DNA of 64,000 nucleotides from Hyphomicrobiaceae bacterium (GCA_965223255.1 CBDCWA010000004.1:1611514-1675513), one strand, 5' to 3'. Counted from the stretch's first letter, positions 4,788 to 20,049 are shown. Numbers and translations: made by a program. The notes: generated from the sequence alone by a model not told the origin.

Positions 4788-5147
4788 AATCAGCTAACAG
4801 ATTTCCACCTTTCCCTACGACACGGATTATCAAGGAACGTGGCGCCAATGGATGTGGCGAACAAACGTAACTTGACCAGGTCTCTATTGTTCCGATCGGC
4901 GATCAATCTCGCGCGGCTTTTTTCTTGCACCATTGAAATGCCCCGCCGGCTTTGCGCAGAAATGCGGTCGGACACCGCCCCATATGACAGCGTTTGCCGC
5001 TGTATTGGCTGAACAATTCCGCCTGCAGACCGAGCGCGCTGGCTGCAAGTATATCGTAACGGCCGGTTCTTGGGTGGCACACATATTGCAACAAAATGGT
5101 GGTCTTAACGTAAACCGCTAAGTTAACTGAAAGCTTTGGAGGACGAG

Positions 5148-5618
5148 ATGGGAACATGGTTGATTGATCGCCGCTTGCTGGGGGTTGTCCTTGCCAGCCT
5201 GGTATTGTTGGTCGTGCCTGGTATGAGCGCGCAGGCTAAAAATGAGGCGATGGCCTCTTACCGGGCTTCTATTATGCAGAGTCTGAATGGGCACGTTGCG
5301 GCCATCGGCGCGATTGTCGATGAAAAGGTCGCCTTTAGGCATCACCTCCTTGATCACGCGGTCGCAATCGTTGGCACAAGCCGCGGTTTGCTGGAAATTT
5401 TCCCCGAGAAGGTAAAGAAAAAGACCGCTGAAAAATCCAAGGCGAATGGCAAGAAGTCAAAGTCTTCTCCTTCCTTCGAGGCTCTGGCTACGGAATTCAA
5501 TCTGGCGGCTGCACATTTGGTTCAGGTGATTCCATCGGGGAACAAGGCAGCCATCAAACAACACTTTGCAAAACTGAAAACAGTGTACGGAAAGCTTCAG
5601 GAGCAAACGAAGAAATAG
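5148..5618 (+). CDS. hypothetical exported all-helical protein (four-helix-bundle-like, Lys-rich linker)
   Basis: ATG 5148 with GGAGGA RBS 4 nt upstream; signal peptide ...VVPGMSAQA; no Cys. Confidence 0.5.
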   Translation: MGTWLIDRRLLGVVLASLVLLVVPGMSAQAKNEAMASYRASIMQSLNGHVAAIGAIVDEKVAFRHHLLDHAVAIVGTSRGLLEIFPEKVKKKTAEKSKANGKKSKSSPSFEALATEFNLAAAHLVQVIPSGNKAAIKQHFAKLKTVYGKLQEQTKK

Positions 5619-6305
5619 GTACCCGCCAAGAGCGATGCAAAGTAGTTTCAAAGCCGATCAGGCCAAGGGACCCTACCCTTGGCCTGCCAAAATGTCGGAG
5701 TAGATTTATTGTGGGTAGAGGAATCCGTGCCGGCGAAGCTGGTAAGAACGCGGGCTGCGACAAGCCTGCAATGGAGTTGAAGCAGCTGGACACAAAGCCA
5801 GTCAATTTATCGGATCAGGCGCAGTCGCAGATTAACTTTGTCCACTCTGACAAACAACAAACAAGTGGCACGGCGGACCAATGCGTGCCGTCGCATCAAC
5901 ACAAGCTGAGCATTTAATTCCCATGGTCAACGAGCGCTTTCGAAGGGCGCTTCCATTGTGTGGCGCAGGTGTCCGATTGCTTGATTGACCGGAGCCCCAT
6001 GCGTTCCATGGGTGTGATTCAACAGCTGACAACTAACATAGATAACATAGACGAATTTTTGCCTATTCGGCTCAAGTATCCGACATGCATGGGTTTTGCC
6101 AATTTGTCAGATGTAGGCCGCCCAACCTACGCATTGATAAATAATGTGAAAGTGCGGAGGTGGCCTGATATTTCCAAGTGCACCCAGACAAGATGGCAGC
6201 ATAGCTGCCACATCTGGCCGGTGTTGCTTGAGGCCGGAGTGGCTATTGTCTTGAATTTCCGGAAAAACCGAAGTTTTCCATTGCGAATCAATCAGTTGTA
6301 GCTTC

Positions 6306-6321
6306 TGGCACAGTCCTTGCA
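6306..6321 (+). promoter_or_regulatory. sigma54 (RpoN) -24/-12 promoter, exact consensus TGGCAC-N5-TTGCA
   Basis: TGGCACAGTCCTTGCA about 178 nt upstream of the Gly-Met-X protein gene; an NtrC-type activator is encoded 8 kb away. Confidence 0.55.
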
Positions 6322-6498
6322 AGCGGTTAATAGAACGTGATGCATTGGGAACGTTTTGTGAGGCCAGGACGCACAGCTGGGGGGTCTCATGTTCTGTAGT
6401 CAGTCAAGAGGCATCGGATTCGCCGCGGTTGTGAAGACGTGCCGCCAACCGAAGGAGCAGGATTAGCAATGGTAACGTTTCAAAAGGAGTTTGGTCGA

Positions 6499-7425
6499 AT
6501 GCGTGGCTACATGGCCGCGGCCGCGGTTATTGCAGCGGGCGTAATAACGGGTATGAGCAGCTCGGAAAGTACCGCGCAGGGCATGCGTGGCATGTACGGA
6601 ATGCCGGGTATGTACGGCATGGGCGGCATGCGCGGCATGCCTGGTATGGGCGGTATGTACGGCATGGGCGGCATGCGCGGCATGTACGGCATGGGTGGTA
6701 TGCGCGGCATGTACGGCATGGGCGGCGTGCGCGGCATGTACGGCATGGGTGGTATGCGAGGTCCAGCCGGCAGGTGGACTTGGGTGTGGGTGCCAGCTCC
6801 TACAAGCAGAATGAGAGGCATGTACGGTATGTACGGAATGCCGGGCATGTACGGCATGGGTGGCATGCGTGGTATGTACGGCATGTACGGAATGCCGGGT
6901 ATGTACGGCATGGGTGGCATGCGCGGTATGTACGGCATGGGCGGCATGCGCGGTATGTACGGTATGCGGGGCATGCCGGGCATGTACGGCATGGGCGGCA
7001 TGCGCGGTATGTACGGCATGGGCGGCATGCGCGGTATGTACGGTATGCGGGGCATGCCGGGCATGTATGGCATGTATGGAATGCCGGGCATGTACGGCAT
7101 GGGCGGCATGCGCGGTATGTATGGCATGGGCGGTATGCGCGGTATGTACGGTATGCGTGGCATGCCCGGTATGGGTGGCATGTACGGCATGTACGGAATG
7201 CCGGGCTTGTACGGCATGGGCGGCATGCGCGGCATGCGCGGTATGTACGGCATGGGCGGCATGGGCGGTATGTACGGCATGCGCGGAATGCCAGGTATGG
7301 GCGGCATGTATGGCATGCGCGGCATGCCGGGTATGGGCGGTATGCGTGGCATGCCCGGAACGCGAAGCTGGGCTCCTCCGCAACCACCGCAGACTCCGCC
7401 ACCGGCGCAGAAGAAGCCGAGCTAA
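6499..7425 (+). CDS. secreted methionine-rich Gly-Met-X triplet-repeat protein (about 80 GMX triplets, about 30% Met)
   Basis: Start at ATG 6499 (AAAGGAG RBS, spacing 9). Signal peptide MRGYMAAAAVIAAGVITGMSSSESTAQG. Then GM[YRPG] triplets in two blocks, about 20 and about 60, split by GPAGRWTWVWVPAPTSRMR. C-terminal Pro-rich tail PPQPPQTPPPAQKKPS. Codon third positions GC-rich in this frame only. Confidence 0.75.
   Translation: MRGYMAAAAVIAAGVITGMSSSESTAQGMRGMYGMPGMYGMGGMRGMPGMGGMYGMGGMRGMYGMGGMRGMYGMGGVRGMYGMGGMRGPAGRWTWVWVPAPTSRMRGMYGMYGMPGMYGMGGMRGMYGMYGMPGMYGMGGMRGMYGMGGMRGMYGMRGMPGMYGMGGMRGMYGMGGMRGMYGMRGMPGMYGMYGMPGMYGMGGMRGMYGMGGMRGMYGMRGMPGMGGMYGMYGMPGLYGMGGMRGMRGMYGMGGMGGMYGMRGMPGMGGMYGMRGMPGMGGMRGMPGTRSWAPPQPPQTPPPAQKKPS
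6583..7360. repeat. tandem nucleotide repeat (9-nt GGCATGNNN units with 81-nt higher-order period) underlying the GMX protein
   Basis: Repeating GGCATGTACGGCATGGGCGGCATGCGC. For example, the 44-nt string at 6943-6986 recurs exactly at 7024-7067. All six frames are open across it, which gives many overlapping artefactual ORFs. Confidence 0.9.
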
Positions 7426-7629
7426 GAGGGCATGGATTTTATGTGATGACAATGTGGGTGCCGGTGGGCAAAGACAGTGCACGCGCACAATGCCCCACCG
7501 GCCTCCGCAAAAACAACCCATCGCATCGTTTCGCTCGTCAACTAACAGCAGTCAAAATCACTTATACCGTGAACCGTTGATTTGATTTTGGGTGCGGTGA
7601 GATTTTCAGAATCTGTGCGGGGGAGGTGA

Positions 7630-8220
7630 ATGTCAGACAGTACTGAGAGCTACAGCGAGGCTGAAGCGTCGTCTCCAATAGAAGAGGCGCGAGCGAAGCC
7701 TATGAAACGAGAAGCATTCAACCAAATTGCTCCGTTTCTTGTCGCTGTCGCAGTCACCGCAGGCATTATAATGGTCTCCGTGGGGGTATCGAAAAAGCAG
7801 CCGGAGCTCGAGCCAGGTCCAAGCAAAGACATCGGCCGACCTGCGGCTCCGCTGTCAAGCGCGAAAGTGCCCGCCGCAAAAGGGCCGGCCGCCACTGCAC
7901 CAAAAGATCCGCAAGTGAGAACGACACCACCAAAGGAGACGGCTTCCCGGCCCTCGAAAGTAGAACCAGTAAAATCCGAATCATCATCGACTGTTAAGAG
8001 TCTTTTTGTCGGCGGTGCAGCACCGAGTAGACGTCCCTCTGATGCTCCGTCGATCAAAGACCTTGCAAAGGACGCCGATTGGTATGCGCGTGCACTTACC
8101 GGCCTCGCAAAGCCCTACCCGCGCAGCTTCAAGTTTTTGGAAGACCAAGGTGCTTGGTATACGCCCTTCAACAAGCGCGGAATGACTGGCCCTTACGACA
8201 TTAGGAGTTGGCATGAATAA
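7630..8220 (+). CDS. single-pass membrane protein with Pro/Ala-rich linker and a conserved about 50-aa C-terminal module
   Basis: GGGGGAGG RBS; acidic N-terminus, TM IAPFLVAVAVTAGIIMVSVGV, low-complexity PAAPLSSAKVPAAKGPAATAPKDP, then C-terminal WYARALTGLAKPYPRSFKFLEDQGAWYTPFNKRGMTGPYDIRSWHE. Confidence 0.6.
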   Translation: MSDSTESYSEAEASSPIEEARAKPMKREAFNQIAPFLVAVAVTAGIIMVSVGVSKKQPELEPGPSKDIGRPAAPLSSAKVPAAKGPAATAPKDPQVRTTPPKETASRPSKVEPVKSESSSTVKSLFVGGAAPSRRPSDAPSIKDLAKDADWYARALTGLAKPYPRSFKFLEDQGAWYTPFNKRGMTGPYDIRSWHE

Positions 8221-9046
8221 GAACACTGGGATGCAACAAATAGCACAGCCATTCACAAATCATGCGTGGCGACCAATGGGCGTCACTGCAATCAAATCCT
8301 TGATTCCAGAAGCGTCGCTCATAGCATCTCTATTGTGGGCAAGTCTGTTCATGATCGGCGTCGCCGACGCGCGCGCTGAAGGCGATATTGAGCAGGGCAA
8401 GAGAGTATTCAGGCTCTGCATCGCCTGCCATAAGATTGGGCCAGGGGCGAGAAACCTGAGCGGGCCAAAACTCAATGGCATTGTTGGCCGAAAGGCCGGC
8501 ACCGTTGAGGGGTTCAAGTATTCTCCCGCCAACAAGAAGGCTGGCGAACAGGGATGGATTTGGACCGAACAGGCATTGGATAAATATTTGGAGAACCCGC
8601 GCAAGGCGATGCCTGGCAATCGGATGGTGTTCATCGGGATAAAAAGCGCGAAGGATAGAAAGAATCTCATCGCTTATCTCAAGTCATTCAAGTCAAGTCA
8701 GCACCGCGGGACGACCAAGACCATGGACGCCGCATCAGCACCGGTCCAGCCGGGGGCTAAAACAAAGCGTTCGGCGAAGGCCGAGCGCGGGGGCAAATCC
8801 CAACCCAAACGGACGACGTCAGTCATATGGGTCGGTGGATCAACCCCGTCCAAACGGCCACCCGCCGCACCGCGCCTGAGAAGCTTCGAGAAGACGCCTG
8901 CCTGGTACCGCCGTGCTCTGGCAGGCCTGTCGAAGCCCTATCCGCCGAGCTTCCGGTTCCTCGAGGATCAAGGTGCTTGGTACACACCATTCAATAGCTC
9001 GGGCATGACAAGCCCTTACGATCTGCGCGCTTGGCATAAAAGTTAG
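8213..9046 (+). CDS. class I (c2-like) cytochrome c with C-terminal extension carrying the same about 50-aa module
   Basis: AGGAG RBS; signal peptide ...MIGVADA; CIACH heme site, GPKLNGIVGRKAG, Met ligand region NRMVFIGIK; basic/Pro-rich linker; C-terminal WYRRALAGLSKPYPPSFRFLEDQGAWYTPFNSSGMTSPYDLRAWHKS. Confidence 0.8.
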   Translation: MNKNTGMQQIAQPFTNHAWRPMGVTAIKSLIPEASLIASLLWASLFMIGVADARAEGDIEQGKRVFRLCIACHKIGPGARNLSGPKLNGIVGRKAGTVEGFKYSPANKKAGEQGWIWTEQALDKYLENPRKAMPGNRMVFIGIKSAKDRKNLIAYLKSFKSSQHRGTTKTMDAASAPVQPGAKTKRSAKAERGGKSQPKRTTSVIWVGGSTPSKRPPAAPRLRSFEKTPAWYRRALAGLSKPYPPSFRFLEDQGAWYTPFNSSGMTSPYDLRAWHKS

Positions 9047-9116
9047 CTTCGCGCAGTGGGTGCCGACGGAGCCCCGGCGCGGTGTGAGAAACAGCATAAG
9101 AATATGAGATAAGAAG

Positions 9117-9977
9117 ATGATGCACAGAACGCTAACCTTGGCAGTGAGTTGCCTGTCCGTCGTTCTTGTCACAGGCAGCATTTATTCGTTTGCATGGTCA
9201 GAGAGTGGCACACGCAAGGGCGATTATGCTGCTGCGGTATGGAACAAACTTCATTTCTCACCAGCCATTGATCGCGCAAGAGATGAGCAGTGCCTTTCAT
9301 GCCATAGCGAGATCCTCAAGCAAAAAGTGCGCACCAAGTCTCCCGCCGGGATAAAGGCGAAAGATTCAATTGCTTGGTATCAGGCAATGGATACGTACAC
9401 AGGAGATCAAGAAACGTTTCATTGGCGGCATATTTCTTCGCCTTTTGCAAAGGCTGTCATGAAGCTGTCGTGCAATTTCTGTCACCGTGGACACGATCCG
9501 CGTGAAGAGGCGCCAGGCTCGAGTGCAACCGCACCGCAAATTGGCAAAGCGACTGGGTTTGCCTTGCGCAAGACGGTTGATCCTTCGCAAACGTGCCTCA
9601 AGTGCCATGGCAGCTTTCCCTATAAGATCATGCAATTGCCGGGACCTTGGCACGAAGTGCGACCGTTAATGGAGTCACCGGAAATAAAAAACGGCTGCCT
9701 AGGCGCTTGTCACAAGGTAGCATTCCGCACCAATCGCCATAACGTGACCTATCTCAATCGCGACAAGATAGAGGAATTGTCCAAGGACAACTCGGACACG
9801 TGCTTTGGCTGTCATGGCGGAAGGGCATGGTACCGGAATTCCTACCCTTATCCGCGAAATCCCTGGCCCGGCATGGACAAAGAGATTCCAAAGTGGGCCA
9901 AGGATAGGCCCACCCAATCCGAAGCGCGCTTTCGCATTGGCGACAAACAAGGCGCCGCGGCTGGCAAGACGAAATAG
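9117..9977 (+). CDS. multiheme c-type cytochrome (four CXXCH plus one CX3CH)
   Basis: N-terminal hydrophobic anchor/signal; CLSCH, CNFCH, CLKCH, CFGCH plus CLGACH. Confidence 0.75.
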   Translation: MMHRTLTLAVSCLSVVLVTGSIYSFAWSESGTRKGDYAAAVWNKLHFSPAIDRARDEQCLSCHSEILKQKVRTKSPAGIKAKDSIAWYQAMDTYTGDQETFHWRHISSPFAKAVMKLSCNFCHRGHDPREEAPGSSATAPQIGKATGFALRKTVDPSQTCLKCHGSFPYKIMQLPGPWHEVRPLMESPEIKNGCLGACHKVAFRTNRHNVTYLNRDKIEELSKDNSDTCFGCHGGRAWYRNSYPYPRNPWPGMDKEIPKWAKDRPTQSEARFRIGDKQGAAAGKTK

Positions 9978-10012
9978 CGGGCACGGCAGCAAAGTGTTGG
10001 AGGCAAAACCAT

Positions 10013-12547
10013 ATGAGTGTGAAGATTGACGTCCTCAGATCAGCTTTAAACCTGACGCGCCGCCGTTTCGTGCAACTGTCGGCGGCAAGTGCAGCCGCCG
10101 GTGCGGCAGGGCTTAAGCCGGAGCAGGCACAGGCGTTCGCCTATGAACCATATCCGACTGACGACGAGCTGACGACGATAGTAACAAGCTGCGCGCATAA
10201 TTGCGGATCGCGTCACGCACTCGTTGCACACAAGAAAGGTGATGTAATTGTCAGGCTGTCATCGGATGACGGACGCTATCAGAAGGATGGAGAATACGGC
10301 AAGGATACAGAGGACGAGCCGCAGGTGCGCGCCTGTCTGCGCGGACGGTCGTATCGTTCGCGGCTCTACTCGGCAGAGCGCCTGCTCCATCCCATGATTC
10401 GGGTCGGAGCGCGCGGTGAAGGGAAATTCAAACGCGCCTCCTGGGATACGGCGTTGGACTACATTGCCGAGCGCATAGTGAACATTAAGAATACCTATGG
10501 GCCAACTGCAATCCTGGACCAAAGCTATGCCGGCGCCTCATGGGGCGTCTTGCATCGCTCGGATCAGATCGAGGGGCTATTAGGGCGCTTTCTCGGCATT
10601 TTCGGTTGCCGCACGACGTCCTGGTCCGTGCCTTCGTATCAGGGAACGACTTTTTCGTCAGAAACGACCTTTGGCACGATTGAGGATGGAAATGAGGATG
10701 ATACGTTTGCCCACTCCAAGCTGATGATCATGTGGGGCTGGAATCCGGCCTACACATTTCATGGCGGCAATACATTCTACTATATGCGACTTGCAAAGCA
10801 GCGCGGATGCAAATTTGTCTTGGTGGACCCGCAATACACAGATTCAGCGGCCTCCTATGATGCCTGGTGGATTCCAATTCGGCCTAATACGGATGCGGCA
10901 ATGCTCGCGGCAATGGCCCACTATATCTTTGTCAACAAACTTCAAGATCAGAGCTTCATCAATCGCTTCTGCCTTGGCATGGACGCGGGCACAATGCCGG
11001 CATTCGCCACCGACCAGGAAAATTTCAGAGACTACATTCTTGGCAGGTATGACGGTCAACCTAAGTCTCCGGAATGGGCGCAAGAGATCTGTGGTGTAAA
11101 GGCCGATGACATCAAGAAGCTCGCGCGGATGTATGCGACGACAAAGCCAGCGGCATTGAAAGCAAGCTGGGCGCCAGGGCGATGCGCATACGGCGAACAG
11201 TATAGCAGGATGGCCGCGGCCCTTCAGGCAATGACCGGAAACATCGGTGTCTTGGGCGGCAGTGCTGAAGGCGTCGGCAAGGCCTGGAAAGCACAGGCTG
11301 CTGCGGGACCGGTAGATCAATACGCCAACATACATGCCGCTGCGATCAAGTCAGATAGATGGGCCGACTGCGTCCTTAATTACCCAAATGTGCGCCGCGA
11401 AGATGTCGGCTTGTGGCCGAAGTCGGGCGCCATGGATGGGGTAATACCGAATATTCGAGCGATTTGGTGGCAAGCGTCCGACTGGTTTAACCAGCTCCCC
11501 AACATCAACAAACAAATAGAAGCGATCCAAAAGCTTGATCTCGTCGTCTGCCAAGATTCGACCATTACGCCATCTGGGATATGGGCCGATGTGCTTCTGC
11601 CGGTTGCTACCCACTTCGAGCGCCACGATGTGGCCCTGCCTTGGTACAAGGGCCACTACTATATTCATAGGCCGAAGGTGATCGAGCCGCTTGGAGAAAG
11701 CAAGACCGACTGGCAGATTTTCACCGAGCTCGCGTTCCGACTCGGATTTGGCAAGACCATGAATCCACTTGCCTCCCGCGACTATTTCCACAACGATGAT
11801 GCGACCGACGAGGCGTATCTCAGGGATTGGTGGGAAAAGCGCGTCATGGGGTATCAAGGAGTTACGATGCCCTGGGATGAGTTCAAGAAACGCGGCATCT
11901 ACAAATTCCGACTGGACAAGCCCCATGTTGCCTTTCGCGAGCAGATTGAGGAGGGCAAACCATTCAAGACCACCTCCGGCAAGATCGAGATATTCTCTAT
12001 CAAACTATCGAACATTAAGGACTTTCGCCAAACGCAGTTTGGTTATCCTATCCCCGCAATCCCAAAATGGATTGAGCCATGGGAAGGCAGGCGCGATCCA
12101 AAGGTGCGCCAATATCCATTCCAGATGATCACGCCACACCCACGTTGGCGAACGCACTCAATATTCAACAACATCGGGTGGCTTCGGGAGACCTATGAGC
12201 AGGAAGTGACAATCAATGCGGACGATGCCGAGAAGCTCGGCATTAAGACAGGGGACAACGTCTACATCTGGAATGAGCGAGGCGCGACGGTGACACCAGC
12301 CTATGTGACACAACGACTGATGCCGGGCGTCGTTGTGCTTTACGAAGGCGCTTGGATGGATCGGGACACAAAGGGTATCGACCGGTCCGGCAATCCGGAT
12401 TTCCTGACCCTGGATGCGCCCAGCCCTGCAGGGGCATTTGCATACAATACGCTGTTGGTAAACATGCAGAAGACCGATCTGCCGCATCGACCCGGCTGGG
12501 ACAAGCTCGCAACGGCACGCAGCCACGTCTTCCGGCGTGACAATTGA
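10013..12547 (+). CDS. Tat-exported DmsA/YnfE-family molybdopterin (bis-MGD) oxidoreductase catalytic subunit
   Basis: GGAGG RBS; twin-arginine signal TRRRFVQLSAASAAAGAAG; TSCAHNCGSRHAL aligns with E. coli DmsA SACTVNCGSRCPL; QVRACLRGRS...HPMIRVGARGEGKFKRASWDTALDYIA is near-identical to the DmsA block as I recall it. Confidence 0.9.
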   Translation: MSVKIDVLRSALNLTRRRFVQLSAASAAAGAAGLKPEQAQAFAYEPYPTDDELTTIVTSCAHNCGSRHALVAHKKGDVIVRLSSDDGRYQKDGEYGKDTEDEPQVRACLRGRSYRSRLYSAERLLHPMIRVGARGEGKFKRASWDTALDYIAERIVNIKNTYGPTAILDQSYAGASWGVLHRSDQIEGLLGRFLGIFGCRTTSWSVPSYQGTTFSSETTFGTIEDGNEDDTFAHSKLMIMWGWNPAYTFHGGNTFYYMRLAKQRGCKFVLVDPQYTDSAASYDAWWIPIRPNTDAAMLAAMAHYIFVNKLQDQSFINRFCLGMDAGTMPAFATDQENFRDYILGRYDGQPKSPEWAQEICGVKADDIKKLARMYATTKPAALKASWAPGRCAYGEQYSRMAAALQAMTGNIGVLGGSAEGVGKAWKAQAAAGPVDQYANIHAAAIKSDRWADCVLNYPNVRREDVGLWPKSGAMDGVIPNIRAIWWQASDWFNQLPNINKQIEAIQKLDLVVCQDSTITPSGIWADVLLPVATHFERHDVALPWYKGHYYIHRPKVIEPLGESKTDWQIFTELAFRLGFGKTMNPLASRDYFHNDDATDEAYLRDWWEKRVMGYQGVTMPWDEFKKRGIYKFRLDKPHVAFREQIEEGKPFKTTSGKIEIFSIKLSNIKDFRQTQFGYPIPAIPKWIEPWEGRRDPKVRQYPFQMITPHPRWRTHSIFNNIGWLRETYEQEVTINADDAEKLGIKTGDNVYIWNERGATVTPAYVTQRLMPGVVVLYEGAWMDRDTKGIDRSGNPDFLTLDAPSPAGAFAYNTLLVNMQKTDLPHRPGWDKLATARSHVFRRDN

Positions 12548-13233
12548 TGATTGGGGACACAGATATGGCAAAGGCGCCGATTGACAAGAAGAAGATAAAG
12601 AACGCGGTAAAACGCAAGAAACAAGACGTTTACAAGCCAGTGGTTCCCCACCAACAGCTCGGGTTTATCCATAACAATGTCGATTGTATCGGGTGCAGGG
12701 CTTGCGAGATTGCTTGTAAGGATAAGAATGGGTTAGCACCCGGACCAAGATTCCGCAGAGTACAATATATCGAGGGTGGCACATATCCCGAGGTGTTTGC
12801 ATACAAGGTAAATATGTCGTGCAATCACTGCGCTGAACCTGCCTGCCTTCCCGCCTGTCCCACCGGCGCGATCTACAAACGGAAAAAGGATGGTATTGTC
12901 GACATTGACTCGACGTTGTGCATCGGATGCCGGCGCTGCGAGGCCACATGCCCCTACGGCGCACCGCAATACATCCCTGATCAAAATATCGTTTCTAAGT
13001 GTAATATGTGCGTGGATGAGATTGATGCCGGTCGTAAGCCCTATTGCGTGATGGCCTGCATGATGCGCGTGCTCGATATTGGTCCGATAGACAAATTGCG
13101 TGATGGGACTTGGGACACTAAAGCCAAGGCAAAGCAGGAGAAAGTTGTACGTCAGGTGCAGAATATGGCGGATCCGGAGCTAACCAATCCATCGATCGTA
13201 TTCGTCGCGCATAGCAAGGGCAAAGTGAAATAG
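12544..13233 (+). CDS. DmsB-like 4x[4Fe-4S] electron-transfer subunit
   Basis: Four Cys clusters: CIGCRACEIAC, CNHCAEPACLPACP, CIGCRRCEATCP, CNMCVDEIDAGRKPYCVMAC. Probable true start ATG 12565 (MAKAPID, GGGGA RBS). Confidence 0.9.
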   Translation: MMIGDTDMAKAPIDKKKIKNAVKRKKQDVYKPVVPHQQLGFIHNNVDCIGCRACEIACKDKNGLAPGPRFRRVQYIEGGTYPEVFAYKVNMSCNHCAEPACLPACPTGAIYKRKKDGIVDIDSTLCIGCRRCEATCPYGAPQYIPDQNIVSKCNMCVDEIDAGRKPYCVMACMMRVLDIGPIDKLRDGTWDTKAKAKQEKVVRQVQNMADPELTNPSIVFVAHSKGKVK

Positions 13234-13302
13234 GCGGTATGCTGCCGTGTTCGTGAACCACCCTGCGCCTTTTCCAATGCGCACTCACCTAGAGCGTTTC
13301 AA

Positions 13303-14130
13303 GTGCACAAACCTATCAGAGGTGCCCACCATGCTGGCCCTAGCCAGCATGCAGGGCGGGAGAATTCATTCGTGCAAGACCATGGACAAAGCGAAGCTGA
13401 ACTTCTTGCTGCTTTCAGAGAGTCGGTCGATGATGACCTGAAGTTGATTGCAGCACTGCACGATCGCGAGATCGATGCACCTGCGATCGCGCAGCTCAAA
13501 CAACTGAGGTTTCCCAGTGGCCTCGGTTTTAATCTGTCAAAGTCGGCAGCGAAACAAGCCCAACGACAAATGATCGATGCTCTTGCGGATCTGCCGGATG
13601 TACCCGATCAAGCGCTTCTCGATGAACTCGCCGTCGATTTTGCAGCAATCTATCTGACCTATCGCTACCGGGCCGCGCCAACGGAATCCGTGTGGCTCGA
13701 TAAGGACCATCTCGAGCGCCAGCAACCTATGTTTCAGACCCGAGCCGCCTACCGCCGAAGAGGTCTGAAGGTCGTCAACTGGAACGTGAGGTCTGAAGAT
13801 CACCTGGTCACTCAACTGCTTTTTGTGGCGCATTTGATTGGCGAATGTCGCGACGAAGTGGCGCTAGCGGATGCTGCAGCGTTCCTTGACCAGCACTTGC
13901 TCCGTTGGATTGACATCTTCGCCTTGAGTGTAGCGCAACGTTGCAGCGCTCGTTTTTATAGCGCCCTCGGCTCGCTGACAGCTGCCTATTTGGACGAGCT
14001 GCGCGATGTTCTCGCAGAGATCCTGGATGAACCGCGACCCCAAATCGTAACAGCCGATCAGATTCTGCAGCCACCCGACGAAGCCGAGCAGCACACTCCA
14101 ATCGCACCGGCCGTTGGTCCAAGCTGGTGA
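13303..14130 (+). CDS. TorD/DmsD-family redox-enzyme maturation chaperone
   Basis: Position immediately after A/B subunits; ...EDHLVTQLLFVAHLI... resembles the TorD family signature; start uncertain (alternative GTG 13372 with GGGAG RBS). Confidence 0.6.
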   Translation: MHKPIRGAHHAGPSQHAGRENSFVQDHGQSEAELLAAFRESVDDDLKLIAALHDREIDAPAIAQLKQLRFPSGLGFNLSKSAAKQAQRQMIDALADLPDVPDQALLDELAVDFAAIYLTYRYRAAPTESVWLDKDHLERQQPMFQTRAAYRRRGLKVVNWNVRSEDHLVTQLLFVAHLIGECRDEVALADAAAFLDQHLLRWIDIFALSVAQRCSARFYSALGSLTAAYLDELRDVLAEILDEPRPQIVTADQILQPPDEAEQHTPIAPAVGPSW

Positions 14131-14151
14131 TCAACCAGCGAATGGGTGCCG

Positions 14152-15534
14152 TTAGTCGCTGCGTTCACTAACGCTAAGTCCATGCTTCTTGAGCAACCTG
14201 TACGTGTTGCGCTCGCTTATTCCCAATACTTCAGCAATCCGCGAGCGATGTCCGCCGTATTTTACGACCAATCTAGCCAGGTAATCTCGCCGGATTTCCT
14301 CTAACGTTGGCTCGTGATCAAACATGAACGCCGCCGTTTCACAACGAGACGACTGAGCGCTGGGTGGAGCACTCAACCCCAGGTGCCGTGCTCGGATAGT
14401 AACGTCGTCGCCAGATACCAGGATTGCCCGCTCTATGACGTTTCTAAGCTCGCGAACATTGCCTGGCCATGAGTATGCGGTAAGCACCTCAATGGCATCC
14501 TTGCTCAATATCTTCTGCCGGGCGCGCTGAAAAGATCTGGTATCCAAAAACAGCTCTGACAGCACCGCGATGTCCTCGCGCCGCTGTCGCAGCGGTGGTA
14601 CACTGATCACAACTGTAGCCAAGCGATAGTAAAGGTCAGATCGAAATCGTCCCTCGTCGATGGATGCTATAAGGTCACGATTAGTTGCAGCGACGATGCG
14701 CGCGTCACTGATTATCTTCTGGGTGCCGCCGACGCGCCGAAATTCTCCGGTCTCAAGCACGCGCAGTAGTTTTGCCTGCATCGACGCAGGCAATTCGCCG
14801 ATTTCGTCAAGGAACAGTGTTCCGCCCTCGGCAATTTCGATCAAGCCCTGCTTGCGCCGGTCCGCTCCTGTAAATGCCCCTTTCTCGTGACCAAACAACT
14901 CCGATTCGAACAGCGTCTCTTGTAATGTCGTTGCATCCACAGGCACAAAGTTGGAATCCGCACGATCGCTCAGCTGGTGAATGGCTTTTGCTACAAGCTC
15001 CTTGCCGACGCCACTTTCGCCCTCGATTAGAACCGTTGAATCGCTTGGTGCGACCAACTCAATAAGATGTGCCATTTCCTCAAAAGCATTGCTCCGTCCA
15101 ACCATAATCTTCTTGATGTTGGGATTTAGTTGTTCTCGGCAATACTGGTAGCTGCGCCTCAAGGAGCTGTTTTCCAATGCTCGGCCAATAGCAAACTCCA
15201 GTTCGGACGGATTGATCGGTTTCGTCAGATAGTCAACCGCACCAGACCGGATAGCTTCGACTGCATGCCGAATGCTTCCGTACGCCGTCAGAACGAGCAC
15301 AGGGCATTGAGCTGAAAGTTCCGGCAAACACTGGATACCATCGATGTCGGGAAGTCTGATATCGAGGAGAGCAAGAGCGGGATCATGAGTCTCCAGCGTC
15401 ACCTTGGCTTCCTCCCATGAATAGACGCCAGTTGGCTGATAGCCCATCGCCCGCAGTTGTTCGATCAGAAAATGATTAAGTGCCTTGTCGTCCTCTATGA
15501 CAAGAAGATGCTTACCTTTCTTTCTTTGCGTCAT
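14152..15534 (-). CDS. sigma54-dependent NtrC-family response regulator (receiver-AAA+-HTH)
   Basis: Receiver domain with D...LLDIRLPDIDG; Walker A GESGVGKE; GAFTGA sigma54-contact motif (ESELFGHEKGAFTGA); C-terminal Fis-type HTH. Confidence 0.9.
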   Translation of the reverse strand: MTQRKKGKHLLVIEDDKALNHFLIEQLRAMGYQPTGVYSWEEAKVTLETHDPALALLDIRLPDIDGIQCLPELSAQCPVLVLTAYGSIRHAVEAIRSGAVDYLTKPINPSELEFAIGRALENSSLRRSYQYCREQLNPNIKKIMVGRSNAFEEMAHLIELVAPSDSTVLIEGESGVGKELVAKAIHQLSDRADSNFVPVDATTLQETLFESELFGHEKGAFTGADRRKQGLIEIAEGGTLFLDEIGELPASMQAKLLRVLETGEFRRVGGTQKIISDARIVAATNRDLIASIDEGRFRSDLYYRLATVVISVPPLRQRREDIAVLSELFLDTRSFQRARQKILSKDAIEVLTAYSWPGNVRELRNVIERAILVSGDDVTIRARHLGLSAPPSAQSSRCETAAFMFDHEPTLEEIRRDYLARLVVKYGGHRSRIAEVLGISERNTYRLLKKHGLSVSERSD

Positions 15535-17435
15535 GATAGTTCTTTCGCTACTTCTGCAGAAGGCAATGTGACAACGAATCTAGTCCCCTCACCAACCACG
15601 CTCGTCACATCTAACCTGCCGCCGCTTCGTTTGACTATTTCTTGGCATATTGAAAGCCCAAGCCCTGTTCCGTGAACGCCGTCGGCACGTTTACTCCAGA
15701 AGGGATCGAATATTTTGGCGAGATCGCTCTTCTTGATCCCCACGCCAGTGTCCTCAAAGACCAGCTCGACCACATCTTCGCAGACTGAGCCCGAAACCAG
15801 CAGGCGCCCGCCATCAGGCATGGCATGCAGAGCGTTCTGTGCGATGTTTAGCACCATCATTCTCATCTCGCTGTCGGAGCCGATTGATCTGAGTTCACTC
15901 TCAAGATCCATCGATATGTCGACCTCTGACTTCAGTGCCTCAGCGTTGAGTAGGGAGAGAACCTCGAACACGACGTTGTTGAGATTTACAAGTTCGCGGT
16001 GCTCGCTTGCTGGTGCGCTAAGCTTCAAAAGACGCGACGTAACTTCTATGCAGCGCGTTATCTGATCTTCGATAATGTCAAGATACTTGCTTGCCTTCTC
16101 GTCCCGACCCTCCCGTAGAGCTCTTTTCGCTGAGTCGAAGCCCAAAAGTATGGACGCAAGAGGGTTGTGAATCTCGTGTGCAACACCCGCGGCCAGGAAG
16201 CCAATTTCCGACAGCCGCTGCTCTTGCGATAGCCGCACGTCCTTGCTCAGGTCTCTAATGACCTCCACAACGAATTTTTTTTGCGTGTCGTCAATAGTGA
16301 TTTCAAGCAGCGCTGCTGAGACCTCGACCGGGATTTCTTTCTCATCGGCGCTCACATGAGAATGCCGACAAGTCAAGACCTGCCCTCCTTTCTGCAGTTC
16401 ATGCAGCGGACAGCTGACCAAGCTCGCTGGGCAAGGCGATTCACGAGAATGGCTGGACCAATAGCAGGGTCGCTGTACCACCTCAGACCGCGCGCGATGC
16501 TGTTGTTCGCAGAATGCGCGGTTAGCCTTGACGACCTGATAGTTCATGTCGATCACGCGCACTCCATCGGGCATTATGTCGATCAGGTCCTGCAAATACC
16601 GCTCTCTGGTCTCTATATTGTGTACAGCTTGAGCGATACGAGCGGACATGTCGTTAAAGGCACGTCCAAGCCGCCCAATCTCATCGGAGCTTTTTAGCGG
16701 CACACGGTGACCCAGTTGGCCCAGCGACATCTTATCCGCTGCCTCGGTCAGTCCTTTCACAGGTGCGAGCACGAACCAGTTAAGCAGAAATCCGATGCCA
16801 CCAATGGTAGTCAGCACGACTGCTATTCCGGCACCACTCAGCATCAATACTGCAAACATTGTGTCGCGTCTGATGTTCGTTGCGTCATAGTCAACGACGA
16901 GAATTCCGTTTATTGGGTGGGTATCAATCTGGCCATGGCATTTAGTGCATGGGCCGCGGTTGCGGACCGGGTTTATGCTGCGCAGAATGTCACCAGCAAC
17001 GGCGTCCGCAACGAAGGCCGAACGGGGCCCGTGCCCTTTTATTGTTGCCTTGCAGTCTGGGCACAACTCACCTGCTTCGAGATCAAAACGTCGGCCAAGC
17101 TGTATCTTGTTGCTCGCAAATCTGACTTCACCATTCGGCGCAAGAATCATGACACCGGAAATATTCTCCTGTTCACCCAATCGTTCGACCATTTTCCTCA
17201 GGCCAACGATGTCACGATTGAGCATCGCATTCTCAAGCCCCAGCTGCAGCAGGCGGTTGACCTCCGTGGATGCTGCGCTGCGTTCCCTCAGGATTTGATC
17301 ACGATAGGAGAGAATGACCAACGCAAGGAAACAGATCGATGCAAACGTTAGGCTTGCGACAAGGATCAGGGTTATTTTCCGCCTTAGGCTTGCAGCAGAC
17401 CACCTGGCTAGGTCATTCCATAACTGTCCCATCAT
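15531..17435 (-). CDS. sensor histidine kinase; periplasmic domain with CXXC and CXXCH motifs, then HAMP and a Cys-rich PAS-like region
   Basis: Two TM helices flank an about 140-aa periplasmic domain with CPDCKATIKGH and GPCTKCHGQ. Cytoplasmic part has C-x11-C-x6-C-x16-C, H-box AHEIHNPLA and an HATPase_c domain with G-boxes DTGVGI, GTGLGL. Stop overlaps the RR start. Confidence 0.85.
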   Translation of the reverse strand: MMGQLWNDLARWSAASLRRKITLILVASLTFASICFLALVILSYRDQILRERSAASTEVNRLLQLGLENAMLNRDIVGLRKMVERLGEQENISGVMILAPNGEVRFASNKIQLGRRFDLEAGELCPDCKATIKGHGPRSAFVADAVAGDILRSINPVRNRGPCTKCHGQIDTHPINGILVVDYDATNIRRDTMFAVLMLSGAGIAVVLTTIGGIGFLLNWFVLAPVKGLTEAADKMSLGQLGHRVPLKSSDEIGRLGRAFNDMSARIAQAVHNIETRERYLQDLIDIMPDGVRVIDMNYQVVKANRAFCEQQHRARSEVVQRPCYWSSHSRESPCPASLVSCPLHELQKGGQVLTCRHSHVSADEKEIPVEVSAALLEITIDDTQKKFVVEVIRDLSKDVRLSQEQRLSEIGFLAAGVAHEIHNPLASILLGFDSAKRALREGRDEKASKYLDIIEDQITRCIEVTSRLLKLSAPASEHRELVNLNNVVFEVLSLLNAEALKSEVDISMDLESELRSIGSDSEMRMMVLNIAQNALHAMPDGGRLLVSGSVCEDVVELVFEDTGVGIKKSDLAKIFDPFWSKRADGVHGTGLGLSICQEIVKRSGGRLDVTSVVGEGTRFVVTLPSAEVAKELS

Positions 17436-17962
17436 TGCGATGCCAGCCGAATGATAAAGCTCTCAGTAGGAACAAGATCCGTATCAATCCGGCAAAGCCT
17501 TTCGGTTTGGTCAGCAAGATCATCCTGGAAGACGGTGATCGGAACGACGACCGGCACCAGCCATTCCCGCGCAGCAAATGCCTTAAGCCAGTCCCGCCGC
17601 TCCTCAGAGGCCTTTGTCGCGAGAATGGATTCCGCGTTATGCACAACGAGCCCGCCACGATTCGATTTCTTTTCGATGTACGCGGTCAGAGCCGATAGTG
17701 GAACCTGGCCGGCCTCCCATCCCAGGGGGAGAAGTTTTTCCGCCCGAAAGTCTATGAAGGTGAAGTCAAGAGCATTCGTCATGGCGCGTATTAACTCTGG
17801 CCGGTACTCGGGAAAAACGACGAAGAAACCTCCACGTCCAGCAGCCTGGGCAATCATCTCGGCAACCGGCCTTATCCAAGGTAATAGAGGCTCTCGAGAC
17901 TGCATCATCGCAACACTTGAAACAGTTTGTCGTAATGCTGCGTCTTCAGGCAGATCCGACAT
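17432..17962 (-). CDS. hypothetical protein co-transcribed with the two-component system
   Basis: Overlaps kinase start by 4 nt; start may be an internal Met at 17908/17905 abutting the upstream stop. Confidence 0.5.
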   Translation of the reverse strand: MSDLPEDAALRQTVSSVAMMQSREPLLPWIRPVAEMIAQAAGRGGFFVVFPEYRPELIRAMTNALDFTFIDFRAEKLLPLGWEAGQVPLSALTAYIEKKSNRGGLVVHNAESILATKASEERRDWLKAFAAREWLVPVVVPITVFQDDLADQTERLCRIDTDLVPTESFIIRLASQ

Positions 17963-19083
17963 CGCAACTCGGCCGATCCCTGGCTCTCAGGCATCAAAAA
18001 CACAGTTCCGCACGAGCGGCATTGCGCAGAATCAAGTTGAATGGATGTCGGGTCGCCGCGCTGCCAGGACTTGACGGCGACTGCATCAGTATCACAAACG
18101 TCAGCGCACAGCCTGCAGCCGGTGCAATGTGACGGAGCGATCTTGTAGGCGGGCCGGCCCGCGTGATCAGTCACAAGTGTGATTGCATGAGTTGGGCATA
18201 TGCGAATACAGGCATTGCACCCGACGCAGTTCGCAGTATCAATTTCGGGAAGATAGGGGTTCAAAGGCATCCCGCTTTCGCCGGCTGGAAGTCGCTCCGC
18301 TGCCGGAACCTGACGTTGTGTCTTCAAGTTGGAATCCACGTCCACCAACCTGCTAACGGCCACAAAAAAACCGCGCCGGGATGCACGCATCGTTGTTGAA
18401 CGTATAGTATGCCATTCGCCAGGTGTGTACTCAGTGATGCTGAATTCATCCATGCCTCGGTCCGCCCAGAGACGTTGGAGGTTGATAACCGCTTGATCAA
18501 ACTGATGACTCAAACCACGCTCGCAGCTCAGGCATGCTTCGCGGCTCACGATCAGCTGTCGCAAACCTTGTGCATATAGTTGAGCCAGTTCATCTATTCC
18601 GATCGAATTCAGGCAAGGTCGTACACCAGGTCCACCTTCTTCGACGGCGACGGAACAGGCAAACAGTCCAATCTTGTCATCGTCATAAGATCTCGCAGCG
18701 TTGGCCAGTGGCAATTCAATCGCAGTCTGCGGGCAGACCGGCACACAGATGCCACATCCATCGCAAGCTTGTTCGTCAAATCCGAGAGCATCCTCCTCTA
18801 AGACCCACGCGGCACGTGGACAAGCATCAACGCAGTCTTGGCAACTAGCGTTGGACACGATCGCATGAACGCAACGATCAGCATCAATAACTGGAAGGTC
18901 TGCGGGCAGATGCGACAGCTTATCGCTTCGCGGAAGGGCAAAGCTGCGTCCTGGCAACCCAGACTCAGTCGTGTCCGAACGATTCTTCGACATCACGTTA
19001 TCGCTTCCGGCGCCCGGTTGCCCTCGCTCGCGCTCGCTGCGCGCACCTACTCGCGTGGCAGCCGACCCGGCGGGCACGGGCAC
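17905..19083 (-). CDS. polyferredoxin-like multi-[4Fe-4S] protein
   Basis: CDGCGICVPVCP, CVGCNACIRICP, CTGCRLCADVCD (CX2CX2CX3C[PD]) plus extra CxxC pairs; N-terminal 40 aa low-complexity so start uncertain. Confidence 0.75.
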   Translation of the reverse strand: MPVPAGSAATRVGARSERERGQPGAGSDNVMSKNRSDTTESGLPGRSFALPRSDKLSHLPADLPVIDADRCVHAIVSNASCQDCVDACPRAAWVLEEDALGFDEQACDGCGICVPVCPQTAIELPLANAARSYDDDKIGLFACSVAVEEGGPGVRPCLNSIGIDELAQLYAQGLRQLIVSREACLSCERGLSHQFDQAVINLQRLWADRGMDEFSITEYTPGEWHTIRSTTMRASRRGFFVAVSRLVDVDSNLKTQRQVPAAERLPAGESGMPLNPYLPEIDTANCVGCNACIRICPTHAITLVTDHAGRPAYKIAPSHCTGCRLCADVCDTDAVAVKSWQRGDPTSIQLDSAQCRSCGTVFLMPESQGSAELRCRICLKTQHYDKLFQVLR

Positions 19084-19148
19084 TTCCGACGATTATGAAA
19101 GACAGCTATTCCAACCCGAGAAACAGCCGCCACGACACGCTGTCGTGA

Positions 19149-19164
19149 TGCAACTCCTGTGCCA
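19149..19164 (-). promoter_or_regulatory. sigma54 -24/-12 promoter, exact consensus, reading into the polyferredoxin-kinase-regulator operon
   Basis: Plus strand GCAACTCCTGTGCCA = minus strand TGGCACAGGAGTTGCA; about 55 nt upstream of ORF start 19083. Confidence 0.55.
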
Positions 19165-20049
19165 TCACCAATACTCTTTGGCGTCCTGTGTCGACGGCTC
19201 GGCAGATAGCCTTTCAGCGCCGTGACTTGGGCAGGAGGAGCACTGAGGCTGACAAATTGTCATGGGTCGGAGGCGCTGAATATGCCAGTCTGTCAGGTCT
19301 GCGCCAAGCATGTTTGATGCTAGTCTCGGATCGACCATATCGAGTGTCTGGAGTCTCTCCGAAAGAGGGGTCCAATAGATCGGTCTTAGCTATGCCCGAC
19401 AACTGGAGGGCAAATATTTGGGGGCAGACCAACCATCGGATATGCGACGACATTTTGCCGAGTTAGCGAAAGCTTCGCAGCAAGAACGCACGAGCTTCTG
19501 TGCTGCCCACTGAGAGCGGACATCACCCGGCGTGGGGCTGACATCGCGGTGGGGGCAAACGAGAAAGTCACACTGAAGCATTGGCTTACAGCCATGGATG
19601 GATGAGCTGGACCGATCGGTACAATTGTAGCTAATGTCCCACTTGGCGTTCAGGACCAGTTCCATCACCAGCAAGTGCCGGCAGTTAGTCTCGATTTGAT
19701 GAGAATTCCTCGTCAATATCGATGAGCCGGCGCCAGAGCATACAAGCGCGGTGCACGAACACGACGCCAGATCAGACACTTGCACTTCCTTTCCATACGG
19801 CCCCGGCACGCTTCTTTTGATCGAGTCGGGAATCAAATGCCATACGCATCGTAGGCTTTGCTCATGGAGCGCGGGCAGTCATGCCAAGTATTTGGCAAGA
19901 TTTGACGCACATCAAAAACTACGCGCAAGACTTGCATGGAACTTGCATGGAAAGAGCAAATTGCCTGCAGAAGTGGAGAGAGCCGTTGGTCCATGATGGT
20001 GATGTGCAGGCCCGTCGCAAAGGGACGGCTCATTTTAGGAGGAAGTAAG

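Follow-up and report, generated by a model that had tools for sequence, protein, structure and literature searches.

What does a two-component system with a putative heme-type sensor control, and what might it sense? The question is raised by positions 14,152 to 19,164 of a 64,000-nt stretch of DNA from a Hyphomicrobiaceae bacterium (GCA_965223255.1, CBDCWA010000004.1:1611514-1675513), in which a sensor histidine kinase and a sigma-54-dependent response regulator are encoded together with a polyferredoxin. The whole stretch is referred to as the window, and all coordinates are counted from its first letter. An earlier description of this region, called the original prediction here, had placed these genes in one autoregulated operon and had suggested a redox-, oxidant- or metal-sensing role. 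The present analysis indicated that the regulator very likely controls two operons, its own and the reductase operon that lies right beside it; the target is this 7.8-kb operon (6306 to 14130) rather than a single gene. The original prediction had not linked the reductase genes to the sensor system. We tentatively propose that the controlled genes provide an inducible methionine redox buffer for the periplasm.

The sensor system is encoded on the minus strand by four open reading frames (ORFs): the polyferredoxin (19083 to 17905), an ORF of 176 amino acids (17962 to 17432), the kinase (17435 to 15531) and the regulator (15534 to 14152). ATGA overlaps were found at all three junctions (17908-17905, 17435-17432 and 15534-15531), and the four genes therefore form one translationally coupled operon. 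The start of the polyferredoxin is most likely the ATG at 18993, which would give a product of 362 amino acids, compared with 345-361 in its homologues. The small protein most likely starts at 17908 (M19 of the 176-amino-acid ORF); this start overlaps the polyferredoxin stop codon and would give about 158 amino acids, the approximate length of the homologues. The genes of the operon are:

17905 to 18993, minus strand: polyferredoxin, cytoplasmic, 362 amino acids from the most likely start, recognized by Pfam Fer4 families and cysteine motifs
17432 to 17908, minus strand: small protein of about 158 amino acids from its most likely start, with a P-loop nucleoside triphosphatase-like (AAA+/RecA-like) fold and no Walker A motif
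15531 to 17435, minus strand: sensor histidine kinase, 634 amino acids, with a first transmembrane helix (TM1), a periplasmic domain predicted to be of the single-Cache heme-c type, a second transmembrane helix (TM2), HAMP, a cysteine-containing PAS domain, HisKA and HATPase
14152 to 15534, minus strand: NtrC-type sigma-54 enhancer-binding response regulator, with a receiver domain, an AAA+ domain with GAFTGA, and a C-terminal helix-turn-helix (HTH)

The regulator, the only NtrC-type activator encoded in the window, matched the receiver family (PF00072, 2.1e-20, residues 11-114), Sigma54_activat (PF00158, 2.9e-67) and an AAA lid domain, and GAFTGA was visible in the translation, as expected from the original prediction that an activator of this type ends the operon. 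Pfam gave no HTH_8 match for the window regulator, and one was recorded for an orthologue. The polyferredoxin has 24 cysteines, arranged in two 2x[4Fe-4S]-type ferredoxin domains and a C-terminal CxxC...CxxC, and it has no twin-arginine translocation (Tat) signal. The small protein matched no family among the curated families of Pfam and NCBIfam.

To place these genes in context, related loci were collected by scanning a collection of one genome per species with the sensor alignment. This gave 384 related stretches, from which 80 loci, chiefly from Alpha-, Beta- and Gammaproteobacteria, were kept for examination; named hosts include Hyphomicrobium, Dechloromonas/Azonexus, Thiobacillus, Sedimenticola and the symbiont Thiodiazotropha. 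Gene content was counted in the 48 loci of at least 15 kb, up to 10 kb from the kinase gene, and residue conservation was counted in an alignment of 78 distinct kinase homologues recovered from genomes.

Evidence that the two operons are controlled together came from their promoters and upstream regions. Exact matches to the sigma-54 consensus TGGCAC-N5-TTGCA occurred three times in the window, compared with 0.09 expected, and none of 100 shuffled sequences reached three or more. All three matches were intergenic and oriented toward a gene. One of them precedes the polyferredoxin, which bears out the operon and promoter that had been predicted, and a second precedes the reductase operon. The regulatory elements are:

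19149 to 19164, minus strand: sigma-54 promoter (-24/-12 element TGGCACAGGAGTTGCA) of the polyferredoxin-kinase-regulator operon, exact consensus
19250 to 19262, no strand assigned: candidate upstream activator site 1, TGACAAATTGTCA, a perfect palindrome 98 nt upstream of the -24 element
19283 to 19295, no strand assigned: candidate upstream activator site 2, TGCCAGTCTGTCA, one mismatch, 131 nt upstream and 33 bp from site 1
6306 to 6321, plus strand: sigma-54 promoter of the Gly-Met-X protein/reductase operon, TGGCACAGTCCTTGCA, exact consensus
6097 to 6109, no strand assigned: candidate upstream activator site, TGCCAATTTGTCA, one mismatch, 209 nt upstream of the 6306 promoter
6186 to 6198: weaker candidate activator site with two mismatches, upstream of the 6306 promoter

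When TGACA-N3-TGTCA was searched with up to one mismatch, there were five matches in the 64 kb, and three of these lay upstream of the 6306 and 19164 promoters. The same element was well conserved in the related loci. A scan of 1.29 Mb for sigma-54 promoters with no more than one mismatch gave 90 matches in all, of which 35 preceded a gene for a Met-rich protein or for a protein with the WYTPF domain described below. TGNCA-N3-TGNCA was present in 30 of the 34 regions upstream of orthologous promoters, with 59 sites in 10.2 kb of those regions compared with 0.11 per kb across the loci, and the positions were concentrated near -88/-100 and between -130 and -167. The half-sites varied between loci (L020, L027, L038, L045-L047, L076 and others), with TGACA/TGTCA in some and TGCCA/TGGCA in the rest, a variation that may reflect co-evolution with the regulator HTH. 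The palindrome search that the original prediction had proposed was thus productive at both promoters. Because the palindrome is shared and conserved at orthologous loci, control of the Gly-Met-X protein promoter by this activator, which had been suggested as probable, is well supported, and positive autoregulation through the palindromic sites at the promoter of its own operon, as predicted, is supported as well. That the regulator controls both operons is, judged from these sites, a highly likely circuit.

The third exact sigma-54 consensus, TGGCACACATATTGCA, lies at 5075 on the plus strand, ahead of a secreted protein of 160 amino acids (5075-5618). This protein matched the cytochrome c' family (PF01322, 6e-11), yet it has zero cysteines and therefore no heme-c site. 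The 5075 promoter was rejected as a member of the regulon, with no TGNCA-N3-TGNCA within 400 nt and a gene that is not conserved in the related loci. It probably answers to another activator, none of which is encoded in the window.

Few other signals were found around these genes. A scan for sigma-70-like sites between 13.9 and 19.9 kb gave none, compared with 3.6 expected, terminator scans gave nothing convincing, and an Rfam search of positions 1-22000 gave no matches. The two operons are convergent, with stop codons 21 nt apart, and no terminator-like hairpin was found in the gap between them (14130-14152). This convergent arrangement was seen in none of the 80 related loci, in which the genes were collinear, divergent, or had the kinase upstream on the same strand.

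What the circuit would turn on is set out below; the first gene behind the 6306 promoter is that of the Gly-Met-X protein.

6469 to 7425, plus strand: secreted (Gly-Met-X)n repeat protein; AAGGAG precedes its likely start, the ATG at 6469, within a 328-amino-acid ORF that begins at 6439
7630 to 8220, plus strand: membrane-anchored protein with a long low-complexity linker and a C-terminal 'GAWYTPF...GPYDIR.WH' domain
8213 to 9046, plus strand: class I cytochrome c (CIACH) fused to a second WYTPF domain
9117 to 9977, plus strand: pentaheme c-type cytochrome with four CxxCH motifs and one CxxxCH
10013 to 12547, plus strand: Tat-exported DmsA/DorA-like molybdopterin subunit, with the Ser molybdenum ligand and the equivalent of DorA Tyr114 conserved
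12544 to 13233, plus strand: DmsB-like four-cluster iron-sulfur subunit
13303 to 14130, plus strand: TorD/DmsD-family Tat proofreading chaperone

These genes were well conserved with the sensor. DmsA-like, DmsB-like and multiheme cytochrome genes were present near the kinase in 46 of the 48 long loci, the sigma-54 regulator in 48, a TorD-like chaperone in 44 and a WYTPF protein in 40. Where the flank of a related locus extends far enough, a secreted repeat protein rich in Met and Gly (GMSGMGGM...) was found in most cases. The DmsA-like orthologues were 70-80% identical to that of the window across alpha-, beta- and gammaproteobacterial loci. In Hyphomicrobiaceae, the order was cytochrome, reductase A, reductase B, chaperone, polyferredoxin, small protein and kinase (with the regulator), all pointing the same way behind one sigma-54 promoter that has two palindromes.

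The WYTPF domain is a C-terminal domain of about 50 residues (PxSFxFLxDQGAWYTPFxxxGMxxPYDxRxWH) that occurs twice in the window and matched no family in Pfam or NCBIfam. In 13 loci, mostly gammaproteobacterial metagenome-assembled genomes (L076:3915-4733 and, for example, L030, L032, L066, L069 and L075), there was also a secreted protein of about 270 amino acids with three RGWxxxRDxxGNLLL[FY]P repeats. In 10 of the 13 loci its gene lies beside the WYTPF gene, on the strand opposite to the kinase and no more than about 2.2 kb upstream of it. The protein has no family assignment.

The input to the circuit is expected in the periplasmic part of the kinase. Two predicted transmembrane helices (about residues 20-45 and 191-215) flank a periplasmic domain of 145 residues (46-190), in which three motifs were considered:

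17214 to 17234, minus strand: ENAMLNR, an invariant helix motif with Met71, the proposed distal heme ligand (M71 in 78/78 homologues)
17049 to 17063, minus strand: CPDCK, an optional CxxC insertion in a loop of the sensor (kinase residues 125-129)
16935 to 16949, minus strand: CTKCH, a c-type heme attachment motif (C163, C166, H167; kinase residues 163-167)

The CxxCH residues C163, C166 and H167 were invariant in all 78 homologues. The spacing between M71 and H167 was 85-100 residues in the family, compared with 84 between Met60 and His144 of GSU0935, in which His144 (of CxxCH) and Met60 are the heme ligands and the methionine is freed by oxidation or by binding of NO or CO (PMC8396549). The original prediction had pointed to both CPDC and CTKCH, and both are present; the first is an optional insertion. 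The upstream CxxC was found in 52 of the 78 homologues and the whole insertion was missing in 26; the next residue was His in 15 and Lys in 2. The upstream CxxC thus lies outside the sensor core, and it is possibly a second heme site in some homologues. CPDCK as an NrfA-type CxxCK heme site is unlikely, given the rarity of the lysine and the frequent absence of the insertion.

An AlphaFold2 model of the sensor domain (pLDDT 85) had a single-Cache (PDC) fold. Foldseek matched it to the sensor domains of WalK, CitA, DctB and DcuS, with E-values of 3.5e-6 to 4.5e-3, and to GSU0935 with 3.3e-3. PF21563, sCache_3_2 and PF11845 were matched by 14 of 19 family members, and one member (P0010) exceeded the PF21563 cut-off, with 31.5 bits compared with 27. 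In a profile search of the PDB with the sensor, 3b47 was found at an E-value of 0.36 only. The family is made up of 381 clusters at 50% identity among 1.84 billion representative proteins, and nearly all members are kinases of about 630 amino acids. Domains of this kind were classed as heme-containing Cache domains in a 2026 preprint, in which a signalling-coupled member binds NO tightly (PMC12889525). The sensor is very probably a divergent heme-c Cache domain related to GSU0582/GSU0935, with a heme of the His/Met type. The heme-type periplasmic sensor of the original prediction is thus retained as a predicted one, on the strength of the strict CxxCH, the fold and the kinship to the GSU0582/0935-type heme-c sensors.

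If so, one c-type heme would be covalently attached at C163 and C166; H167 would be its proximal ligand, and Met71, which is invariant, would serve as a distal ligand open to exchange. A periplasmic oxidant could oxidize the heme, or NO or a similar ligand could displace the methionine, and the change in oxidation or ligation state would shift the N-terminal helix and pass through TM2, HAMP and PAS to the kinase core. The phosphorylated regulator would then bind the cTGNCA-N3-TGNCAg palindromes about 90-210 bp upstream of the two sigma-54 promoters. From the 19164 promoter this would raise expression of the polyferredoxin, small protein, kinase and regulator, that is, positive autoregulation; from the 6306 promoter it would produce the (Gly-Met-X)n protein, the two WYTPF proteins, the pentaheme cytochrome, the DmsAB-like reductase and the TorD-like chaperone. 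The Met-rich protein could act in the periplasm as a sink that is sacrificed to oxidants such as hypochlorite, chloramines, peroxide or peroxynitrite, the molybdoenzyme would reduce its methionine sulfoxides again with electrons delivered by the cytochromes, and the polyferredoxin and the small protein would act as cytoplasmic accessory factors of the reductase.

This proposal is made because a DorA-like enzyme is encoded together with a co-regulated protein that is 26% methionine, because a methionine sulfoxide reductase is encoded nearby, and because there is a precedent in MrpX-YedY1. The nearby gene is:

4080 to 4787, plus strand: membrane-anchored MsrA, whose N-terminal anchor implies a periplasmic catalytic domain

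Five other loci (L012, L030, L033, L064 and L075) also encode an MsrA with a signal sequence no more than 10 kb from the kinase. DorA is able to reduce protein-bound methionine sulfoxide (PMC7402097), and in Azospira the Met-rich periplasmic protein MrpX is sacrificially oxidized by hypochlorite and regenerated by YedY1, a molybdenum methionine sulfoxide reductase (PMC4436054). By analogy with these systems, the function could be an inducible periplasmic methionine/methionine-sulfoxide redox buffer, which the sensor heme would control through its redox state or its ligation, an assignment to which we give a little less than an even chance.

The reductase itself allows another reading. Its catalytic subunit has a twin-arginine motif (TRRRFVQ) and belongs to the DMSO (dimethyl sulfoxide) reductase family (PF00384/PF01568). 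DorA of R. sphaeroides was the closest solved structure (1.2e-71), along with trimethylamine N-oxide (TMAO) reductases, and the equivalents of Ser147 and Tyr114 align. The score against TIGR02166 (dmsA_ynfE) was 615 bits, with YnfE and DmsA next best. The operon might therefore be read as an ordinary anaerobic respiratory reductase for DMSO, another S- or N-oxide, selenate or a like oxyanion, with the heme kinase reporting low periplasmic redox potential or substrate and the Gly-Met-X protein as an accessory for structure or for the handling of substrate. Together with the multiheme cytochrome, the TorD-like chaperone completes the subunit set of such an enzyme. The host genera on record for the loci (Dechloromonas, Azonexus, Thiobacillus, Sedimenticola and Hyphomicrobium), which are mostly facultative anaerobes or denitrifiers, fit as well, and GSU0582/0935 have been interpreted as redox-potential sensors (PMC8396549). 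However, the 615 bits are under the curated dmsA_ynfE cut-off of 777.7, and in the NCBIfam scan the subunit fell below the cut-off of every named family. No DmsC-type quinol-oxidizing membrane anchor was found among the genes between 6.3 and 19.2 kb, and the pentaheme cytochrome stands in its place. A respiratory role also leaves unexplained the Met/Gly-rich secreted protein, which is often the first or second gene behind the sigma-54 promoter in the loci where it could be reached, and the recurring periplasmic MsrA. We consider the respiratory explanation rather unlikely, though more probable than the other alternatives.

One feature of the catalytic subunit was unusual. At about residues 59-69 it reads TSCAHNCGSRH, that is, C-x3-C-x3-H, and this motif was kept in 44 of 47 orthologues; E. 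coli DmsA has a third Cys where the subunit has His. The N-terminal Fe-S cluster may thus have His as a ligand or depart from the norm in some other way.

The Gly-Met-X protein can be viewed in a third way. Met makes up 26% and Gly 33% of the 328-amino-acid ORF, and the protein has a hydrophobic leader at its N-terminus and few charged residues. Its Met-rich repeats are similar to the Mets motifs with which CopA, CopB, PcoE, SilE and Ctr1 bind Cu(I), and it could be the metal sponge of a periplasmic stress system directed at a soft metal such as Cu(I) or Ag(I), which the two-component system would sense in the manner of ZraSR-ZraP or Cus/Sil. The Cys3-His site of the PAS domain could bind metal, and sigma-54-dependent two-component control of copper tolerance is known from CorSR of Myxococcus (PMC3707914). 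Against this, His and Asp, which Cu-binding Met motifs usually contain, are lacking from the repeats, the input domain in the periplasm is of the heme type and not metal-binding, and there would be no role for the strictly co-conserved Ser-ligated oxotransferase and cytochromes. When all ORFs of the 80 loci were clustered, no recurrent metal efflux pump, multicopper oxidase or P-type ATPase appeared, and a metal-resistance context was rejected on these grounds. The metal-sensing role that had been suggested earlier thus finds no support in gene context, and a soft-metal system is very improbable.

Two observations on the Gly-Met-X sequence are recorded here. The near-perfect triplet repeat scores on collagen-repeat models (Pfam Collagen, 3.6e-21), which is a compositional match and the only one in Pfam. 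The repeat blocks are broken by a short aromatic segment, GRWTWVWVP, with the counterparts YFxITPQGQIYFYP and NWVCTQWS in orthologues.

The cytoplasmic part of the kinase carries a second conserved site:

16410 to 16466, minus strand: metal- or cluster-type motif of the PAS domain, C324-x4-H329-x5-C335-x6-C342-P, supported by conservation in the 78 homologues

The original prediction had described four spaced cysteines here, with spacings of 11, 6 and 16 residues, and had compared them to the Fe-S-binding PAS domain of NreB. Four cysteines are indeed present, with the spacing C324-x10-C335-x6-C342-x13-C356 instead, and there is a further C309. Only three of them are invariant: C324, C335 and C342 were found in all 78 homologues, P343 in 77, H329 in 63 and C356 in 34. 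NreB likewise has conserved cysteines in a cytoplasmic PAS domain of a kinase, with CX2CX11CX2C and a [4Fe-4S] cluster in S. carnosus and CX2CX11C and a [2Fe-2S] cluster in B. licheniformis, the latter a precedent for a three-cysteine cluster (PMC13478379). Unlike in NreB, the motif here is C-x4-H-x5-C-x6-CP, different in both spacing and position. An NreB-like four-cysteine Fe-S PAS domain as a feature of this family was therefore ruled out. NreB would remain a loose precedent only, as a kinase whose PAS domain carries a metal or cluster site; at the present site the cofactor could be Zn, Fe-S or none.

The PAS cysteines bear on what the polyferredoxin and the small protein do. Both might be signalling parts, either as a redox relay in the cytoplasm, by which the Cys-PAS domain would be loaded or read, or as an anti-activator of the AAA+ regulator. 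The ATGA overlaps couple both genes translationally to the kinase and regulator, the AAA+/RecA-like fold of the small protein could dock on the AAA+ ring of the regulator, and the three PAS cysteines are invariant. Gene order in the related loci argues otherwise. The polyferredoxin gene directly followed the TorD-like gene in at least 38 loci, even where kinase and regulator were divergent or upstream (Thiobacillus, Arenicellales and other gammaproteobacterial loci), and in L022 the small protein followed the reductase genes on their strand and was not with the kinase. In the Dechloromonas/Azonexus loci, where only about 1.4-2.2 kb was available beyond the TorD-like match, neither gene was detected, and the same kinase with the same three PAS cysteines was retained. 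A signalling role for the two proteins is thus quite unlikely. Since both genes travel with the reductase genes elsewhere, they are members of the reductase module and not of the sensing apparatus, and their products are more likely accessory factors of the reductase than parts of the sensor. The single sensory unit of all four genes that the original prediction implied is not upheld. In the window, an inversion appears to have put the polyferredoxin and small protein genes with those of the kinase and regulator behind their own sigma-54 promoter, and this arrangement would preserve the autoregulation that read-through gives in collinear loci.

Several points weigh against the explanation that we prefer, in which a heme sensor circuit controls a periplasmic methionine buffer. 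MsrA was nearby in just 6 of about 49 loci, the window included. The window kinase was under every Pfam heme-Cache threshold, with an E-value of 0.15-0.19 for PF11845 and no PF21563 match. GSU-type sensors are usually read as sensors of redox potential and heme-Cache receptors as sensors of NO, and neither as an oxidant sensor, while the conserved PAS Cys3-His site implies a second input. The reductase could be an ordinary respiratory one for S- or N-oxides, selenate or another oxyanion, and binding of Cu(I) or Ag(I) is a further capacity of Met-only repeats. An autoregulated operon driven purely by sigma-54 needs basal expression, and the source of this was not located in the sigma-70-like scan of 13.9-19.9 kb. 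Heme binding, the identity of the signal, the binding of the regulator to DNA and the methionine-sulfoxide cycle, the reductase substrate included, are what we infer from the observed gene content, motifs, fold, promoter and operator conservation, and synteny. Taken as a whole, the heme sensor circuit with its methionine buffer is the explanation that we hold to be somewhat more probable than its negation.

A bolder version, a methionine redox buffer with feedback built into it, is also conceivable, and is a long shot. The heme sensor might read the redox state of the Gly-Met-X protein and not free oxidant: thioethers would compete with Met71 as the distal ligand, sulfoxides could not, and the cell would in effect titrate methionine against methionine sulfoxide in a polymer dedicated to this. 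Quinol electrons delivered by the pentaheme cytochrome and the DmsAB-type enzyme would then amount to respiration of oxidant by a protein-bound sulfoxide shuttle, with the C-x3-C-x3-H motif as a cluster variant and the polyferredoxin and pseudo-ATPase as specific maturation factors.

If the preferred explanation is true, these loci encode a widespread module for envelope defence or redox balance, and the principle of pairing a sacrificial Met-rich protein with a molybdenum methionine sulfoxide reductase extends to another enzyme family and another regulator. The recently defined heme-Cache sensors would gain a concrete regulon and DNA operator, and the sensor, its operator and the two promoters would make up a sigma-54 circuit that is clean and open to testing. 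Attention is also drawn to the unusual cluster motif of the DmsA-type enzyme, with its His, and to three conserved proteins that are uncharacterized: the polyferredoxin, the P-loop-like protein and the WYTPF domain. The searchable literature, with a 2026 review on sulfoxide reductases among it, gave no description of this gene combination. Each kind of component is already known, whether the heme-c Cache sensor, the sigma-54 two-component system, or the pair of a Met-rich scavenger and a methionine sulfoxide reductase; the distinctive parts are the DmsAB-type enzyme, the pentaheme cytochrome, the WYTPF proteins, the polyferredoxin and a defined operator.

The nearest functional parallel is MrpX/YedY1 (MsrP)/SigF-NrsF of Azospira suillum (PMC4436054). 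Both systems have a secreted, probably unstructured Met-rich protein, with 20% Met in MrpX compared with 26% here, both have a co-regulated periplasmic molybdenum enzyme, which in the present case plausibly reduces methionine sulfoxide, and both would be induced through a dedicated envelope sensor. The reductase here is of the DMSO reductase family (DmsAB-like, bis(pyranopterin guanine dinucleotide) cofactor, Ser ligand) with a pentaheme cytochrome, whereas MsrP/MsrQ is of the sulfite-oxidase family. The regulator is a predicted heme kinase with a sigma-54 activator, not a pair of extracytoplasmic function (ECF) sigma and anti-sigma factors such as SigF/NrsF. The Met-rich protein, unlike MrpX, is a Gly-Met-X repeat with few charged residues, and its function is proposed from the genes around it. 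In HprSR-MsrPQ of E. coli, too, a two-component system that senses in the periplasm, in this case reactive chlorine, turns on a molybdenum enzyme of the periplasm that reduces methionine sulfoxide (PMC13488963). It differs in that HprS has no heme motif, HprR is an OmpR-type sigma-70 activator, the enzyme is of another family and there is no Met-rich sink.

ZraSR-ZraP of E. coli, which the original prediction had offered as a loose analogy, is alike in being an autoregulated sigma-54 two-component system whose target gene, next to it or divergent from it, encodes a stress protein of the periplasm. The analogy holds for this topology only: the sensor domain here is unrelated, the target is not of the ZraP/Spy type, and membership in ZraSR was ruled out on equivalog scores (ZraS 153.1 compared with a cut-off of 479, ZraR 348.7 compared with 760). 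Among reductase systems, the catalytic subunit is nearest to the DorA/TorA structures and to the DmsA/YnfE subfamily, and a Tat signal, a TorD-family chaperone, a multiheme electron donor and two-component control are shared with DorSR/TorSR-controlled DorCDA/TorCAD and with DmsABC. It differs from these systems in having a DmsB-type iron-sulfur subunit with no DmsC anchor, the C-x3-C-x3-H motif for the N-terminal cluster and an extra polyferredoxin. Its pentaheme cytochrome is unlike DorC/TorC, and its regulator is sigma-54-dependent with a predicted heme sensor.

The sensor itself resembles GSU0582/GSU0935 of Geobacter sulfurreducens (PF21563, Mcp40H-20_sensor) and the sCache_heme/Tll0287-like family (PF11845; PMC12889525). 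All of these domains lie in the periplasm between two transmembrane helices, and all have the single-Cache (PDC) fold with one strictly kept CxxCH late in the domain, followed by HAMP. The N-terminal-helix methionine of GSU0935 is at a like distance from the heme histidine. Unlike in GSU0582/GSU0935, the output is a PAS-HisKA-HATPase kinase with a sigma-54 regulator and not a chemoreceptor, and there is an additional CxxC(K) insertion, which forms a second CxxCH in 15 of the 78 homologues. In contrast to both these proteins and the wider sCache_heme family, the present family is small and is tied to one gene module.

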